From a virus (Duplodnaviria > Heunggongvirae > Uroviricota > Caudoviricetes): 4,256 nt of DNA. Each line of letters opens with the position of its first letter. Position 1 is the first letter of the stretch. Position numbers and translations under genes: made by a program. A model generated the notes under the pieces. That model ran no database searches and was not told the origin of the DNA. It saw only the letters and a program-made list of their open reading frames with translations. Positions 1 to 4,256 of the stretch are shown here, in pieces. The stretch is taken from the IMG/VR virus record IMGVR_UViG_2537561928_000019; one strand, 5' to 3'.

Positions 1-67
1 CTTCGCCTTCGGCAAGACCTTCGAAGTATTCTTCGTAAGCCTTTTCCATGATTGCGTCGAAATCCAT
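1..67 (-). CDS. 5' end of a small prophage early-left-operon protein (possibly YdfB-like); the rest lies beyond the left window edge
   Basis: Minus-strand ATG at 67..65 preceded by an AGGTGA Shine-Dalgarno-like motif (rc of 72-77). Open frame to the window edge; visible N-terminus is MDFDAIMEKAYEEYFEGLAEGE. The start lies 1 nt after the stop of the upstream ORF (TGAtATG), an operon-type junction. Not in the ORF track because it has no stop inside the window. Confidence 0.45.
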   Translation of the reverse strand, partial: MDFDAIMEKAYEEYFEGLAEGE

Positions 68-224: not shown

Positions 225-400
225 GCTGACCTCATTTCCCCTTAACGCCGGGGTAGCGGAACAAAAACCTGCTGCATAGTTAAAGTTGAACCCTGCCGTC
301 ATGTTCTTACGCCTCGGGCTGGCTACTTAACCCCTGACCACTGCCTGGTAACTCGAAGTATTGCCCTGCATTATGTGGGGCGGGGTGGGTTGATATTTTT

Positions 401-443
401 AGTTTAATAAACATTAAACTTAAGTCAAGTAAAAACTAAACCG
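401..443 (-). promoter_or_regulatory. OL-like operator/promoter element for the leftward early operon
   Basis: Perfect 8-4-8 palindrome AGTTTAAT-aaac-ATTAAACT at 401-420. On the minus strand, TTGACT (428..423), a 16-nt spacer and TAAACT (406..401) form a sigma70-like promoter reading toward ydfA. The segment 402-420 is 17/19 identical to 1427-1445, and AACTAAACCG at 434-443 recurs as CACTAAACCG at 1457-1466. Confidence 0.5.
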
Positions 444-1376: not shown

Positions 1377-1474
1377 GTGGTAATTATCTTTAGTAATCAC
1401 TAAACAAGCAAATACTTGACTTAATGGTTTATTAAACACTAAACTCTCAAAAAAAACACTAAACCGAGGAAGGT
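1377..1474. promoter_or_regulatory. Divergent promoter/operator region (OR-like) between paaR2 and the ydaS-like gene
   Basis: Palindrome TTTAGT-aatc-ACTAAA at 1389-1404. Three ACTAAAC-containing elements at 1398-1405, 1438-1444 and 1459-1465. Rightward candidate promoter: TTGACT 1416-1421, 18-nt spacer, TAAACT 1440-1445, then GAGGA SD 1466-1470 before ATG 1475. Leftward candidate promoter (minus strand): -35 TTGCTT (rc of 1406-1411), 17-nt spacer containing the palindrome, -10 GATAAT (rc of 1383-1388). Confidence 0.6.
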
Positions 1475-1777
1475 ATGACATTAAAAGAGTTTATTAAATC
1501 ATTGAGGGTTGGTGATGCTAAGAAATTCGCAGCCAGACTTGGTGTATCGCCATCTTACTTATCGCAAATGGCGTCTGGACGAGCAGCTATATCTCCAACA
1601 CGCGCCCTTATGATCGAATCTGCGACGGAAGGCCAAGTAAGTAGGGCGGAGCTACGACCCCATGATTGGGAGCTTATTTGGCCTGAGTATGCGAGCGGCA
1701 TTCGTTTGGGGCAAACACATGTAGTTCATGCTGAAGGTGATTGTAGTGCATGCTTATCTGATGGAGTTGATTCATGA
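1475..1777 (+). CDS. ydaS: YdaS-like Cro-type HTH regulator, 100 aa
   Basis: Track ORF 1475..1777(+). HTH-like segment FAARLGVSPSYLSQMASGRAAISPTRALMIESAT. Divergent from the CI-like regulator, as in cI/cro and racR/ydaS pairs. Stop overlaps the next start (ATGA at 1774-1777). GAGGA SD upstream. Confidence 0.7.
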   Translation: MTLKEFIKSLRVGDAKKFAARLGVSPSYLSQMASGRAAISPTRALMIESATEGQVSRAELRPHDWELIWPEYASGIRLGQTHVVHAEGDCSACLSDGVDS

Positions 1778-2199
1778 AAATCAAGCATGAACACATCCGC
1801 ATGGCGATGAATGCCTGGGCGCATCCGGACGGTGAAAAAGTTCCGGCTGCGAAAATTACCAAAGCGTATTTCGAGCTGGGAATGACGTTCCCGGAACTGT
1901 ATAACGACAGCCATCCGGAAGCCCTGGCTCGCAATACTCAGAAAATTTTCCGCTGGGTGGAGAAAGACACCCCTGATGCGGTTAAAAAAATTCAGGCGTT
2001 GTTACCAGCTATCGAAAAGGCAATGCCACCTCTGCTGGTGGCCCGAATGCGCAGCCACAGTTCAGCCTATTTTCGGGAGCTGGTGGAGACACGGGAGCGA
2101 CTGGTGAGAGACGCTGATGATTTTGTCGCAGTGGCAATCGCCGGTTTCAATCAGATGAACCGCGGTGGCCCGGCAGGAAATGCTGTGGCAGTGCATTGA
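1774..2199 (+). CDS. ydaT: YdaT-like protein (CII-like regulator of Rac/CP-933P-type prophages), 141 aa
   Basis: Track ORF 1774..2199(+). N-terminus MKIKHEHI... and size match my recollection of the YdaT family. Translationally coupled to the ydaS-like gene through the ATGA overlap. Confidence 0.75.
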   Translation: MKIKHEHIRMAMNAWAHPDGEKVPAAKITKAYFELGMTFPELYNDSHPEALARNTQKIFRWVEKDTPDAVKKIQALLPAIEKAMPPLLVARMRSHSSAYFRELVETRERLVRDADDFVAVAIAGFNQMNRGGPAGNAVAVH

Positions 2200-2270
2200 C
2201 TGACAATAGCCATATCGAATCGCTTCCGGCAACTCGTGAGTAAAAAGATTCGGTATCAGAAGAGGTGAGT

Positions 2271-3341
2271 ATGGCTAACGCCTGGCTCAGATTATGGCAT
2301 GACATGCCAAATGACCCTAAGTGGCGAACAATTGCCAGGGTGTCAGGGCAGCCAATTGCAACAGTGATGGCAGTGTATATCCACCTCCTGGTGAGCGCGT
2401 CACGAAATGTCACGCGAGGTCACATTGATGTCACGACAGAAGATTTGGCAAGTGCGCTCGACGTGACAGAAGAGGTAATTGATTCAATTTTGCAGACGAT
2501 GCAGGGGCGGGTACTTGACGGTGATTTAATCACTGGATGGGAAAAACGCCAGGTGCTGAAAGAGGACAACGGCAATATTTCGCAAACCGCAAAATCTCCT
2601 GCAGAGCGCAAGAGGGCGCAGCGAGAGAGGGAAAGAAAGCGGGAACAAAATGGCAATTGTCACGGCGCGTCACGAAATGTCACGCACATGTCACGACGAG
2701 TCACGACAGATAAAGATACAGATAAAGATACAGATCAAGAAGATCAAAACACTATGGTCCATGGCGTAAAAAACGCCACGAACCAGGCAGGGGATGTTCA
2801 GACCGTCAATCCTGGTCAGCCAGCAGGCACGACACCGGAAGCCGATTCAGCGTATGCGCTGAAAGCCGATTCGGGCGCTGTGCAGCAGGTGATGACCGCA
2901 AGGCCGGAGCAATCACACCAACTGCAGCAGCCTGAAGCCGATTCCGCCATTCAGCGGGAAGCCGATCGGGTAGTCCCGGAAAACACCGGGCAGCCTGTGA
3001 GACGAGTGGATTATCCGGATGTGTTCGAACAGGTCTGGCGGGAATACCCGCTGCGTGCTGGGGCAAACCCGAAGAAATCCGCTTTCAGTGCCTGGAAGGC
3101 CAGATTACGCGAGGGGGTGTCACCAGAGGCCATGCTGGATGGCGTGAGGCGTTACGCAAGATACCTTGCGGCTACCGGGAAAACGGGAACGGAATTTGTT
3201 CAGCGAGCGACGACGTTTTTTGGACCGGACCGGAATTTTGAAAACCCCTGGCTGCTCCCGGTAAGCGGCACGAACAACCAGCGTTGTGTGAATCATATTT
3301 CTGAACCGGATACCGAAATTCCACCGGGCTTCAGGGGGTAA
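2271..3341 (+). CDS. Putative phage replication initiation protein (in the YdaU / lambda-O position) with a low-complexity central linker and embedded iterons
   Basis: Track ORF 2265..3341(+). I prefer ATG 2271 (MANAWLRLWHDMPNDPKWR...) with GAGGTG 3 nt upstream; GTG 2265 is the alternative. The C-terminal segment VFEQVWREYPLRAGANPKKSAFSAWKARL... resembles a motif I recall from phage replication proteins. The central part is Asp/Lys/Thr-rich low complexity encoded by DNA repeats. Position after the cro/cII analogs matches lambdoid O-type genes. Confidence 0.65.
   Translation: MANAWLRLWHDMPNDPKWRTIARVSGQPIATVMAVYIHLLVSASRNVTRGHIDVTTEDLASALDVTEEVIDSILQTMQGRVLDGDLITGWEKRQVLKEDNGNISQTAKSPAERKRAQRERERKREQNGNCHGASRNVTHMSRRVTTDKDTDKDTDQEDQNTMVHGVKNATNQAGDVQTVNPGQPAGTTPEADSAYALKADSGAVQQVMTARPEQSHQLQQPEADSAIQREADRVVPENTGQPVRRVDYPDVFEQVWREYPLRAGANPKKSAFSAWKARLREGVSPEAMLDGVRRYARYLAATGKTGTEFVQRATTFFGPDRNFENPWLLPVSGTNNQRCVNHISEPDTEIPPGFRG
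2399..2435 (+). repeat. Iteron-like direct repeat cluster 1 (4 copies of GTCACR at 10-11 bp phasing)
   Basis: GTCACG at 2399 and 2409, GTCACA at 2419, GTCACG at 2430. The 21-mer GCGCGTCACGAAATGTCACGC at 2396-2416 recurs exactly at 2666-2686. Confidence 0.5.
2659..2705 (+). repeat. Iteron-like direct repeat cluster 2 (5 copies of GTCACG at 10-11 bp phasing); candidate origin core
   Basis: GTCACG at 2659, 2669, 2679, 2690 and 2700, one copy per helical turn, immediately followed by an AT-rich tandem repeat. Located inside the initiator gene, as lambda ori is inside O. Confidence 0.55.
2707..2750 (+). repeat. AT-rich tandem repeat (CAGATAAAGATA x2, then degenerate CAGATCAAGAAGATCAA); possible DNA-unwinding element
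   Basis: Exact 12-bp tandem duplication at 2707-2718 and 2719-2730, followed by degenerate copies. Encodes DKDTDKDTDQEDQ in the initiator. Directly 3' of iteron cluster 2. Confidence 0.45.
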
Positions 3342-3381
3342 GTGTTGATTTCTGGTCATGAGGTAATTTTCAGGAGGGCTT

Positions 3382-3804
3382 GTGGCAAAAGTTTTTACAC
3401 AAGAAGAGCGGGAAAAAATTAAAGGGCAGGTTGTTGAACTCGTACGCCGGAGTGGGCGTGAGACGTTACGGCAACTGGAAGTCAAGACAGGTGCGACAAG
3501 ATATCTGATGAGCGTTCTCGCAAGAGAGCTGGTTGCCAGCGGCGATGTATACAACTCTGGTTACGGGTTATTCCCGTCTGAACAGGCGCGTAAGGACTGG
3601 CAAAATGCCCGTAAAAAGCTCTCAAGGGCAAAGCTGAAGGAACCATCTGCGGTTGATCCGGACCTTATCTGGTCATTACCTGACGGAGAAATACGTCGTT
3701 ACGACAGGCGTCATAATATGATTTGTACTGAGTGTCGTAAAAGCGAAGTTATGCAGCGCATATTGTCGTTTTATCAGGGGGATGTCCGGTATTTATTGAA
3801 GTGA
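3382..3804 (+). CDS. Hypothetical protein, 140 aa, function unknown
   Basis: Track ORF 3382..3804(+). GTG start with AGGAGG SD at 3372-3377; an in-frame stop 18 nt upstream limits any extension. Starts 40 nt after the initiator stop, so probably the same operon. The protein is basic with a possible HTH-like N-terminal segment (RETLRQLEVKTGATRYLMSVLARELV) and a C-terminal CTECRK motif. I do not recognise the family. Confidence 0.6.
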   Translation: MAKVFTQEEREKIKGQVVELVRRSGRETLRQLEVKTGATRYLMSVLARELVASGDVYNSGYGLFPSEQARKDWQNARKKLSRAKLKEPSAVDPDLIWSLPDGEIRRYDRRHNMICTECRKSEVMQRILSFYQGDVRYLLK

Positions 3805-3872
3805 CGAGATTAAAGTGCATTAGTTCAGATGCAAATTGACATTTTGTGGCACAGGGTAGAGCTAGCGTGGTT

Positions 3873-3896
3873 GTCCGCTTTGTGCCAAGAGCGGAC
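3873..3896. terminator. Candidate stem-loop between convergent genes (weak intrinsic terminator candidate)
   Basis: GTCCGCT (3873-3879) pairs with AGCGGAC (3890-3896) around a 10-nt loop, followed by TTTG. The U-tract is short, so this is weak. Confidence 0.25.
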
Positions 3897-3933
3897 TTTG
3901 CAAAATGGGGGTTATTTCAATCAAAACGTAACG

Positions 3934-4254
3934 TCACAACCAGCCGACGCTCTCTCGCCATTTATAATTAGTAACTTTATCATTTTCGCTTATTTTTTTA
4001 GATATAGAGCGCGGCTCTCTTCCTAGATACTCAGATATTTCTATCGGGGACAAATCAAAATCAACAAGCATGACTCTAAGTTTTTCCATTTCCTTTAAAG
4101 TCCAAGGCTTGCCATAATTTTCATAAAGAGATACCTTATGCTCCCTGATAGTTCGCTTTCTCTGAGTTTCACTTTCCCTCTGAAAAATCTCGCTTTTAAA
4201 TTGTGAACGGAACTCTTTACAGAAGTTGTTATCAGTTTTTTTGTTATATAGATT
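3934..4254 (-). CDS. 3' part of a minus-strand gene running off the right edge; hypothetical protein with a Myb/SANT-like HTH motif, encoded in low-GC DNA
   Basis: Manual translation of the reverse strand gives a 107-codon open frame from the window edge to TGA at 3936..3934: ...NLYNKKTDNNFCKEFRSQFKSEIFQRESETQRKRTIREHKVSLYENYGKPWTLKEMEKLRVMLVDFDLSPIEISEYLGREPRSISKKISENDKVTNYKWRESVGWL. Absent from the ORF track because the start is outside the window. The segment KPWTLKEMEKL...ISEYLGREPRSISKKI resembles a Myb/SANT-type helix-turn-helix. The region is clearly more AT-rich than the rest of the window. Confidence 0.5.
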   Translation of the reverse strand, partial: NLYNKKTDNNFCKEFRSQFKSEIFQRESETQRKRTIREHKVSLYENYGKPWTLKEMEKLRVMLVDFDLSPIEISEYLGREPRSISKKISENDKVTNYKWRESVGWL

Positions 4255-4256
4255 GC

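Follow-up and report, generated by a model that had tools for sequence, protein, structure and literature searches.

Gene content of the immunity region

The window, the whole stretch of 4,256 nucleotides that was analysed, represents a mosaic lambdoid prophage when compared by megablast with complete E. coli genomes. Positions 235–2188 are 95.6% identical to the cryptic prophage CP-933P of strain EDL933, and the immunity region is a variant that is 96–99% identical overall. The central genes, assigned from Pfam matches and sequence identity, show the order of the CP-933P type, with parE2, paaA2 and paaR2 read leftward and ydaS and ydaT read rightward. The toxin gene parE2 lies on the minus strand at 513–791 (Pfam ParE_toxin, E = 1.9e-16) and is annotated as a RelE/ParE toxin in the related loci L001 and L002. 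It is joined on the same strand by the antitoxin gene paaA2 (793–984; Pfam PaaA2, E = 1e-19) and by paaR2 (1005–1376), which encodes a CI-like repressor of 123 aa and has a leaderless ATG at 1376. The paaR2 gene of CP-933P is also leaderless, its promoter PRM933P having been mapped by 5′ RACE (PMC8630535). On the plus strand, ydaS (1475–1777; Pfam YdaS_toxin, E = 3.9e-12, and HTH_3, E = 1.4e-6) encodes a Cro-like regulator and is followed by a ydaT-like gene (1774–2199; Pfam YdaT_toxin); further along the window are genes for a replication-type protein (2271–3341) and a DUF977 protein (3382–3804). At the opposite end, a ydfA-like gene on the minus strand (69–224; DUF1391, Pfam E = 1e-27), annotated in loci L002 to L006, is the first gene downstream of the left promoter PL, and after it comes ydfB (1–67, minus strand), which is cut by the window edge.

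Both regulators closely resemble their EDL933 counterparts. PaaR2 shares 121 of its 123 residues (98%), with both changes located in the linker and the DNA-binding domain unchanged, and YdaS shares 99 of 100, the one difference being A37T. The N-terminal domain of PaaR2 matches PDB entries 7nkv, 8c3k and 8c3l, and a literature search by the codes 7NKV, 8C3K and 8C3L yielded no relevant paper. None of the Pfam HTH families matched PaaR2 significantly (best HTH_31, E = 0.063). Neither did Pfam reveal a Peptidase_S24 domain in the 123-aa protein, such as would provide autocleavage of the lambda-like type, and PaaR2 was earlier described as lacking the S24 autocleavage motif (PMC8630535).

Some additional elements were observed to the right of the immunity genes. 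A perfect YdaT operator (TTGATTCATGAAAATCAA; 1767–1784) extends over the stop codon of ydaS and the start of ydaT and corresponds to the published consensus TTGATTN6AATCAA, site OM. The replication-protein gene contains two clusters of TGTCACG-type repeats (2399–2437 and 2659–2707), 260 bp apart and with a spacing of about 10 bp, which resemble the iterons of a replication origin located inside an O-like gene, as in lambda, and it also carries a short GATAAAGATACA tandem at 2709–2745 that encodes DKDTDKDT. Region 3279–4256 is 99.6% identical to strain EC6030, and the part from 3805 to 4256 departs from the CP-933P-like relatives; a minus-strand ORF in its AT-rich stretch continues beyond the end of the window.

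Promoters and transcript leaders

A consensus promoter scan located PL, the equivalent of PL933P, on the minus strand at 401–428, with a −35 hexamer TTGACT (428..423), a 16-nt spacer and a −10 hexamer TAAACT (406..401); it reads leftward into ydfA-ydfB. PR, on the plus strand at 1416–1445, consists of the same hexamers, TTGACT (1416–1421) and TAAACT (1440–1445), separated by 18 nt, and it reads into ydaS-ydaT. An earlier note on this DNA had proposed the leftward TTGACT-16-TAAACT promoter and identical hexamers near 1416–1445, and the scan lists both. A PRM-like promoter of paaR2 was read from the sequence on the minus strand at 1382–1410 (−35 TTGCTT, 1410..1405; −10 GATAAT, 1387..1382). Its layout is conserved upstream of diverged repressor genes, and the operator IR1, described below, fills its spacer.

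The predicted leader of the PL transcript (225–396, minus strand) is about 170 nt long and is 95% identical in the heteroimmune locus L005, unlike in L003, L004 and L006. An in-frame ATG lies upstream at 302, preceded by GAGG, and its use would lengthen YdfA from 51 to 77 aa. Between the parE2 stop and the left operator region OL there is a hairpin on the minus strand (449–490); folding of the RNA of 430–520 yielded −20.1 kcal/mol (z = −3.46), and none of 200 shuffles was as stable. Positions 453–512 are invariant in three PaaR2-type loci, and the stem lacks a canonical U-tract directly after it. By analogy with tIMM of lambda, the hairpin could terminate transcription of the paaR2 operon. On the plus strand a U-rich stretch (AUGUUUCUAUU) follows the stem, and the structure might act in both directions. 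A search of the whole window against Rfam at E ≤ 1 produced no match, leaving the PL leader and the hairpin without a known RNA family.

A repeated palindrome at the two ends of the repressor operon

Segment 402–420 (GTTTAATAAACATTAAACT) is identical to 1427–1445 (GTTTATTAAACACTAAACT) at 17 of 19 positions, there is a perfect 8-4-8 palindrome at 401–420 (AGTTTAAT-AAAC-ATTAAACT), and AACTAAACCG at 434–443 has a counterpart, CACTAAACCG, at 1457–1466. These repeats, the palindrome and the recurring 10-mers had been reported in the earlier note, and every coordinate was borne out by a scripted check. On the plus strand, 402–443 and 1427–1466 form a direct repeat, not a mirrored one, consisting of the palindrome, 13–15 nt and the 9-mer ACTAAACCG. 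This 9-mer has two copies in the window, starting at 435 in OL and lying at 1458–1466 in the right operator region OR, against 0.04 expected, and ACTAAAC occurs four times against an expectation of 0.52, with every copy inside the two operator regions. When up to 3 mismatches were allowed, the 19-mer was found at only two places in the window, and two matches arose in none of 200 whole-window shuffles. Given the AT-rich patches, such whole-window shuffles overstate the significance: the GC content is 22% and 30% in the two operator regions against 48% for the window. Because both patches are so much more AT-rich than the window, a local control was run in which dinucleotide shuffles were restricted to the right intergenic zone (n = 300), and there 17/19 was reached in a single one of the 300 shuffles.

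The earlier note had proposed a motif search across the prophage, since a motif common throughout the genome would point to a coincidence of AT-rich background. All 18-mers were compared with the palindrome GTTTAGTAATTACTAAAC, whose half-site is the published one (PMC8630535), and sites matching at 13 or more of 18 positions were regarded as strong. The window contains exactly four such sites, two per promoter region, where the shuffle mean is 0.15, and the same four sites, and no others, were found in L002, a 15.8-kb arm of a related prophage. The motif is not common: its strong sites are confined to the two regions.

Anatomy of the left and right operators

The promoter-proximal operator of OL (402–419) is an 18-bp palindrome (GTTTAATAAACATTAAAC) that matches the consensus at 14 of 18 positions, is identical in EDL933 and has outer 7-nt arms that are perfectly self-complementary; an equivalent site is kept in the diverged loci considered below. 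Its left half overlies the PL −10 and the remainder most of the spacer. The second operator (424–441; GTCAAGTAAAAACTAAAC), also 14/18 to the consensus and with the half-site ACTAAAC at 435–441, overlies the PL −35 and the adjoining upstream sequence, and its centre lies 22 bp, about two helical turns, from that of the first. This two-site layout (…TTACTTGAC-N4-5-GTTTAGT…TAAACT) recurs in many of the diverged loci. The OL core at 399–432 is identical to that of EDL933, and there is one substitution in the second site (T433 versus C). A third candidate at 441–458 is weak and without self-complementarity, and only two OL sites are convincing.

In OR, operator IR1 (1388–1405; CTTTAGTAATCACTAAAC; 16/18) lies within the PRM spacer, and IR3 (1427–1444; GTTTATTAAACACTAAAC; 15/18), the 17/19 partner of 402–420, overlaps the PR −10; in the diverged loci their equivalents occur at about −21 and −60, respectively, from the repressor start. 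Degenerate sites possessing a right half-site only are present at about 1407–1424 and at 1447–1464, the latter with ACTAAAC (1458–1464) alone conserved. They match IR2 and IR4 of CP-933P, which were described as having no left-half conservation (PMC8630535).

The OR sequence equals that of EDL933 except around an A-run (1446–1457) between IR3 and the IR4 half-site, where there is a T/G substitution at 1447 and where the run is 8 nt long in the window, 7 in EDL933 and 6 in L002. Consequently, the IR3–IR4 spacing and the length of the ydaS leader drift by 1–2 bp among near-identical prophages, which suggests that IR4 is not tightly phased with IR3 and that not every site need be under a tight phasing constraint. 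An extra left half-site (GTTTATTAA; 8/9) occurs at 1489–1506 in the 5′ coding end of ydaS, 42 bp from the centre of IR4, and is kept in EDL933 and L002; this may represent a fifth, weak site or a chance match.

The promoter-like TTGACT/TAAACT hexamers overlapped by the two operator blocks are directed outward. When one T is added to the end of a half-site, the result is TAAACT, such that the palindrome furnishes a −10 hexamer on either strand, and it is for this reason that sites repeated directly on the plus strand can serve promoters of opposite orientation.

Experimental work on CP-933P

This region was studied by Jurenas et al. (2021, mBio; PMC8630535) in the cryptic prophage CP-933P (Sp12) of E. 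coli O157:H7. EMSA and DNase I footprints located PaaR2 and YdaS on the 97-bp paaR2-ydaS intergenic region, where four evenly spaced 18-bp inverted repeats, IR1–4, with the half-site consensus GTTTAGTAA, overlap PRM933P and PR933P, IR1 being placed over PRM933P inside the footprinted region (PMC8630535). PaaR2 was found to octamerise in solution, and the possibility of looping by a lambda CI-like octamer motivated a search for a left promoter; the putative promoter PL933P, named by analogy with lambda, has −35 and −10 hexamers identical to those of PR933P and operators OL1–3 (PMC8630535). PaaR2 and YdaS each lowered the expression of a PL-gfp fusion about 100-fold, and repression was demonstrated for PL, PR and PRM reporters (PMC8630535).

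The window likewise carries, beyond parE2, a promoter with the hexamers of PR and adjoining OR-like operators. The operator pair has, therefore, been rediscovered from sequence alone; the interpretation is correct and the finding was already known (PMC8630535). Binding and repression by PaaR2 and YdaS probably carry over from CP-933P to the variant in the window, which has the same gene order (parE2, paaA2, paaR2, ydaS, ydaT), the same PL and PR hexamers and the same PaaR2 DNA-binding domain. The two differ to the left of position 235, where the window has ydfA-ydfB directly downstream of PL and EDL933 another segment, and in the replication genes to the right; single changes also fall in the second OL site and in YdaS, and two in the linker of PaaR2.

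Heteroimmune relatives and the exchangeable cassette

Four E. coli prophages, L003 to L006, carry other repressor/cro pairs, including DicA/DicC of the Qin type, and constitute a heteroimmune set. They share the left flank of the window (ydfA-ydfB); on the right flank two of them are homologous from 1763, before ydaT, onwards, and two only from 3279, that is over the 3′ end of the replication-type gene and the DUF977 gene. In L005, homology to the window is limited to 1–396 and 1763–3779, and since it ends at 396 and returns at 1763, the exchangeable immunity cassette can be defined as 397–1762, comprising OL/PL, parE2, paaA2, paaR2, OR and ydaS. On the left the cassette ends immediately beyond the PL −10 and on the right shortly before the YdaT operator, and these boundaries (396/397 and 1762/1763) take in both operator sets, the repressor gene and the cro-like gene. 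The YdaT operator begins 4 bp to the right of the boundary at 1763; it is outside the swapped segment and, thus, stays with ydaT and not with the PaaR2/YdaS cassette. At a coverage of at least 80%, the cassette was detected in 592 of 5426 complete E. coli genomes (about 11%), mostly at 95–99% identity, and Escherichia phage Evi, deposited as a 40-kb genome, has it as well (98.3% identity).

Each PL zone was compared with each OR zone in a 6 × 6 matrix of 19-mer matches. The match within the own locus was always the best, at 17, 17, 14, 15, 16 and 15 of 19, with off-diagonal values of 12–14, and the motifs differ visibly from locus to locus, being for example ATACCCAYRGGTA in L005 and TGAGAAAACTCAA in L006. 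By local shuffles the own-locus match was significant for the window, L004, L005 and L006. For L003 the own-locus 19-mer test was not significant (134 of 300 local shuffles); by eye, a 9-mer, AAATATTAG, is present in both of its zones. OL and OR thus vary in step with the repressor, in line with the reading of both by a single protein, the match being non-significant for L003.

Diverged PaaR2-like loci

A search with PaaR2 yielded loci from Xenorhabdus, Photorhabdus, Yersinia, Morganella, Erwinia, Raoultella, Enterobacter and others, at 44–76% amino acid identity, with a common upstream layout, …GTTTAnTAAnCACTAAAC…GTCAAG.ATTTGCTTGTTTAGnnATTACTAATCAAAATG. Twenty-five non-redundant diverged loci were scanned with the outer 7+7 positions of the palindrome at a threshold of at least 12/14. 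In the OR zone there are 41 sites over the 25 loci, typically one close to each of the IR1 and IR3 positions given above. Downstream, 22 sites were detected in 19 of the 25 loci, between +452 and +2301 from the repressor start, and many of those sampled lie within an outward TTGAC…TAAACT promoter, some with a −35 of TTTAC or TTGCC. Further upstream, 52 kb over the diverged loci contained no site. The 63 sites observed compare with 0.375 per shuffled set. The OL–OR distance among the relatives ranges from about 0.5 to 2.4 kb. In a group with a PaaR2 of about 73% identity (L086–L097), the OR sites are altered and mostly fall below the threshold, and no OL was found by this consensus.

In diverged loci, unrelated cargo is encoded in the interval from the repressor gene to OL, with Pfam matches to DUF4236 and to an Arc-like RHH protein and a weak coiled-coil match below the Pfam cut-off, and with several cargo ORFs devoid of any Pfam family; the segments examined are L021 3197–4088, L022 3086–4012, L025 3691–4515, L028 3345–3970 and L033 3176–3439. 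In other diverged loci OL directly follows the repressor gene. The repressor–OL segment is, on this comparison, apparently a variable cargo slot, equivalent to that of rexAB in lambda and occupied here by paaA2-parE2.

In L021, L024 and L030 (repressor 2501–3140) the PaaR2-like N-terminal region is fused to a Peptidase_S24 domain of the LexA/CI type, unlike the E. coli PaaR2 with its short non-cleavable tail. These fused repressors, from Yersinia, Erwinia and Acerihabitans, are 58–76% identical to PaaR2 over the first 58–87 residues or so and are associated with the same operator motif. It follows that the two-ended operator design belongs to the family of DNA-binding domains and is not peculiar to the E. 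coli prophage that bears the toxin-antitoxin genes.

Comparison with lambda and Qin

As in lambda, two early promoters directed outward enclose a leftward operon that encodes the repressor and cargo proteins, the operators are multiple and adjacent, a cro-like competitor acts at the same regions, the repressor octamerises, and operators and repressor are exchanged together as one immunity cassette. One motif recurs over the −10 and −35 elements of two outward early promoters flanking the repressor gene, this architecture is conserved among homologous repressors (19 of the 25 diverged loci), and the operators co-vary with the repressor in heteroimmune relatives, significantly except for L003. 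There are also clear differences. The operators have no sequence homology to those of lambda, PaaR2 is a protein of 123 aa lacking S24, a ParE-type toxin-antitoxin pair occupies the slot of lambda rexAB between repressor and OL, and OL and OR are 1.0 kb apart, whereas the separation in lambda is about 2.3 kb. Moreover, for CP-933P four roughly equally spaced OR sites have been reported as against three in lambda (PMC8630535).

There is also a parallel with Qin of E. coli K-12, where dicBp occupies the position of PL immediately upstream of the ydfA-ydfB homologue; with the flank of the Qin type, positions 1–262 of the window share about 95% identity. The Qin repressor DicA acts on dicBp and dicCp, each with three operators, and these promoters have been called PL- and PR-like (PMC10448788). 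Unlike the window, Qin has DicA as repressor, DicC as the cro-like protein and a TTAGYTAxxACTAAC-like operator motif, and no toxin-antitoxin cargo lies between its repressor and PL.

Mechanism and alternative explanations

We estimate at roughly 90% the probability that the region constitutes the core of a lambdoid OL/OR switch in which PaaR2 acts at both operator sets and is opposed by YdaS. The proposal of the earlier note, one repressor for two promoter-overlapping operator sets, agrees with the CP-933P study (PMC8630535), with the confinement of the motif, with its change with immunity type and with its conservation in diverged relatives. Sites 402–419 and 424–441 would form OL, and sites 1388–1405 and 1427–1444, plus the weaker half-sites, would form OR. 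PL is expected to drive ydfA-ydfB, and in related prophages the region further left of PL carries ydfC, dicB/kil and an exonuclease gene. OR would overlap the divergent promoters PRM (paaR2-paaA2-parE2) and PR (ydaS-ydaT). The common 18-bp palindrome, GTTTAGTAA/TTACTAAAC, would be read by the HTH domain of PaaR2, whose dimers at OL and OR are predicted to cover the −10 and −35 elements and to turn both early operons off, with PRM also becoming occluded at higher PaaR2 occupancy. Cro-like YdaS, by binding overlapping sequences, would counteract PaaR2 and so produce a bistable switch; for CP-933P, this much of the mechanism has been demonstrated (PMC8630535). We infer, in addition, that dimers pair cooperatively on sites about two helical turns apart, and that a PaaR2 octamer may bridge OL and OR, 1025 bp apart, to yield a loop of about 1.0 kb.

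The most serious competitor of this last step holds that OL and OR are both genuine but work independently, by plain promoter occlusion with neither a loop nor long-range cooperativity. It draws on the fact that the OL–OR distance is not conserved among relatives. However, that variation is compatible with looping, without constituting a demonstration of it, and in lambda and lac the exact distance is of little matter for loops beyond about 0.5 kb. Local occlusion alone also explains the strong repression of an isolated PL-gfp fusion in the absence of OR, and no looping experiment was reported (PMC8630535), while independence of the two ends sits less easily with the CI-like octamer that PaaR2 forms in solution (PMC8630535) and with the pairing of sites at about two helical turns at both ends, which is the lambda arrangement. 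Independent action seems to us to fall somewhat short of an even chance.

It is very improbable that the left sites are a decayed relic of OR, a duplicate in direct orientation that fell into disuse in a cryptic prophage. The direct-repeat alignment of 402–443 and 1427–1466 on the plus strand would be in keeping with such an origin, as would the defective state of prophages of the CP-933P type (PMC8630535). Against it, three relatives have an unchanged OL core next to variable non-coding bases, about 590 genomes retain the cassette at 95–99% identity, many distant relatives have kept the outward promoter with its two sites, and PL933P is active and repressible (PMC8630535). Even less credible is a chance likeness of two AT-rich intergenic patches with no shared function, which we reject: despite the AT-richness of both regions and the one local shuffle in 300 that reached 17/19, the local-composition control remains significant, the motif occurs nowhere else in the 15.8-kb prophage arm, diverged loci from other genera have it at both positions, far above the shuffled expectation, and reporter and footprint results have been published for the near-identical CP-933P with its identical OL core (PMC8630535).

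Biological implications

The lambdoid switch reading implies that the ParE2-PaaA2 pair is embedded in, and controlled by, a lambdoid immunity switch and is not autoregulated as are ordinary type II modules, and that the left promoter governs host-killing genes of the dicB/kil type, in a prophage present in about 11% of complete E. coli genomes. The control of ParE2-PaaA2 and of the host-killing genes has already been published for CP-933P (PMC8630535), and what is added here is modest, namely the boundaries of the cassette, the joint change of the OL and OR motifs, and the two-ended design in distant PaaR2-like repressors.

More tentatively, and with odds that we would put slightly below even, the GTTTAGT…ACTAAAC OL/OR design may be ancient and portable in all prophages with a PaaR2-type domain, whether this domain bears a short oligomerisation tail or S24, with a variable cargo slot for ParE toxin-antitoxin genes, DUF4236, Arc-like or unknown proteins that would lie inside a DNA loop made by the repressor, the formation of the loop tying cargo expression to lysogeny. 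If this is true, only the looping and the coupling of cargo would be new, the operator pair itself having been published. The comparative results define no new kind of system; they strengthen the published model and provide a motif that is ready for use in annotating immunity regions of this type.
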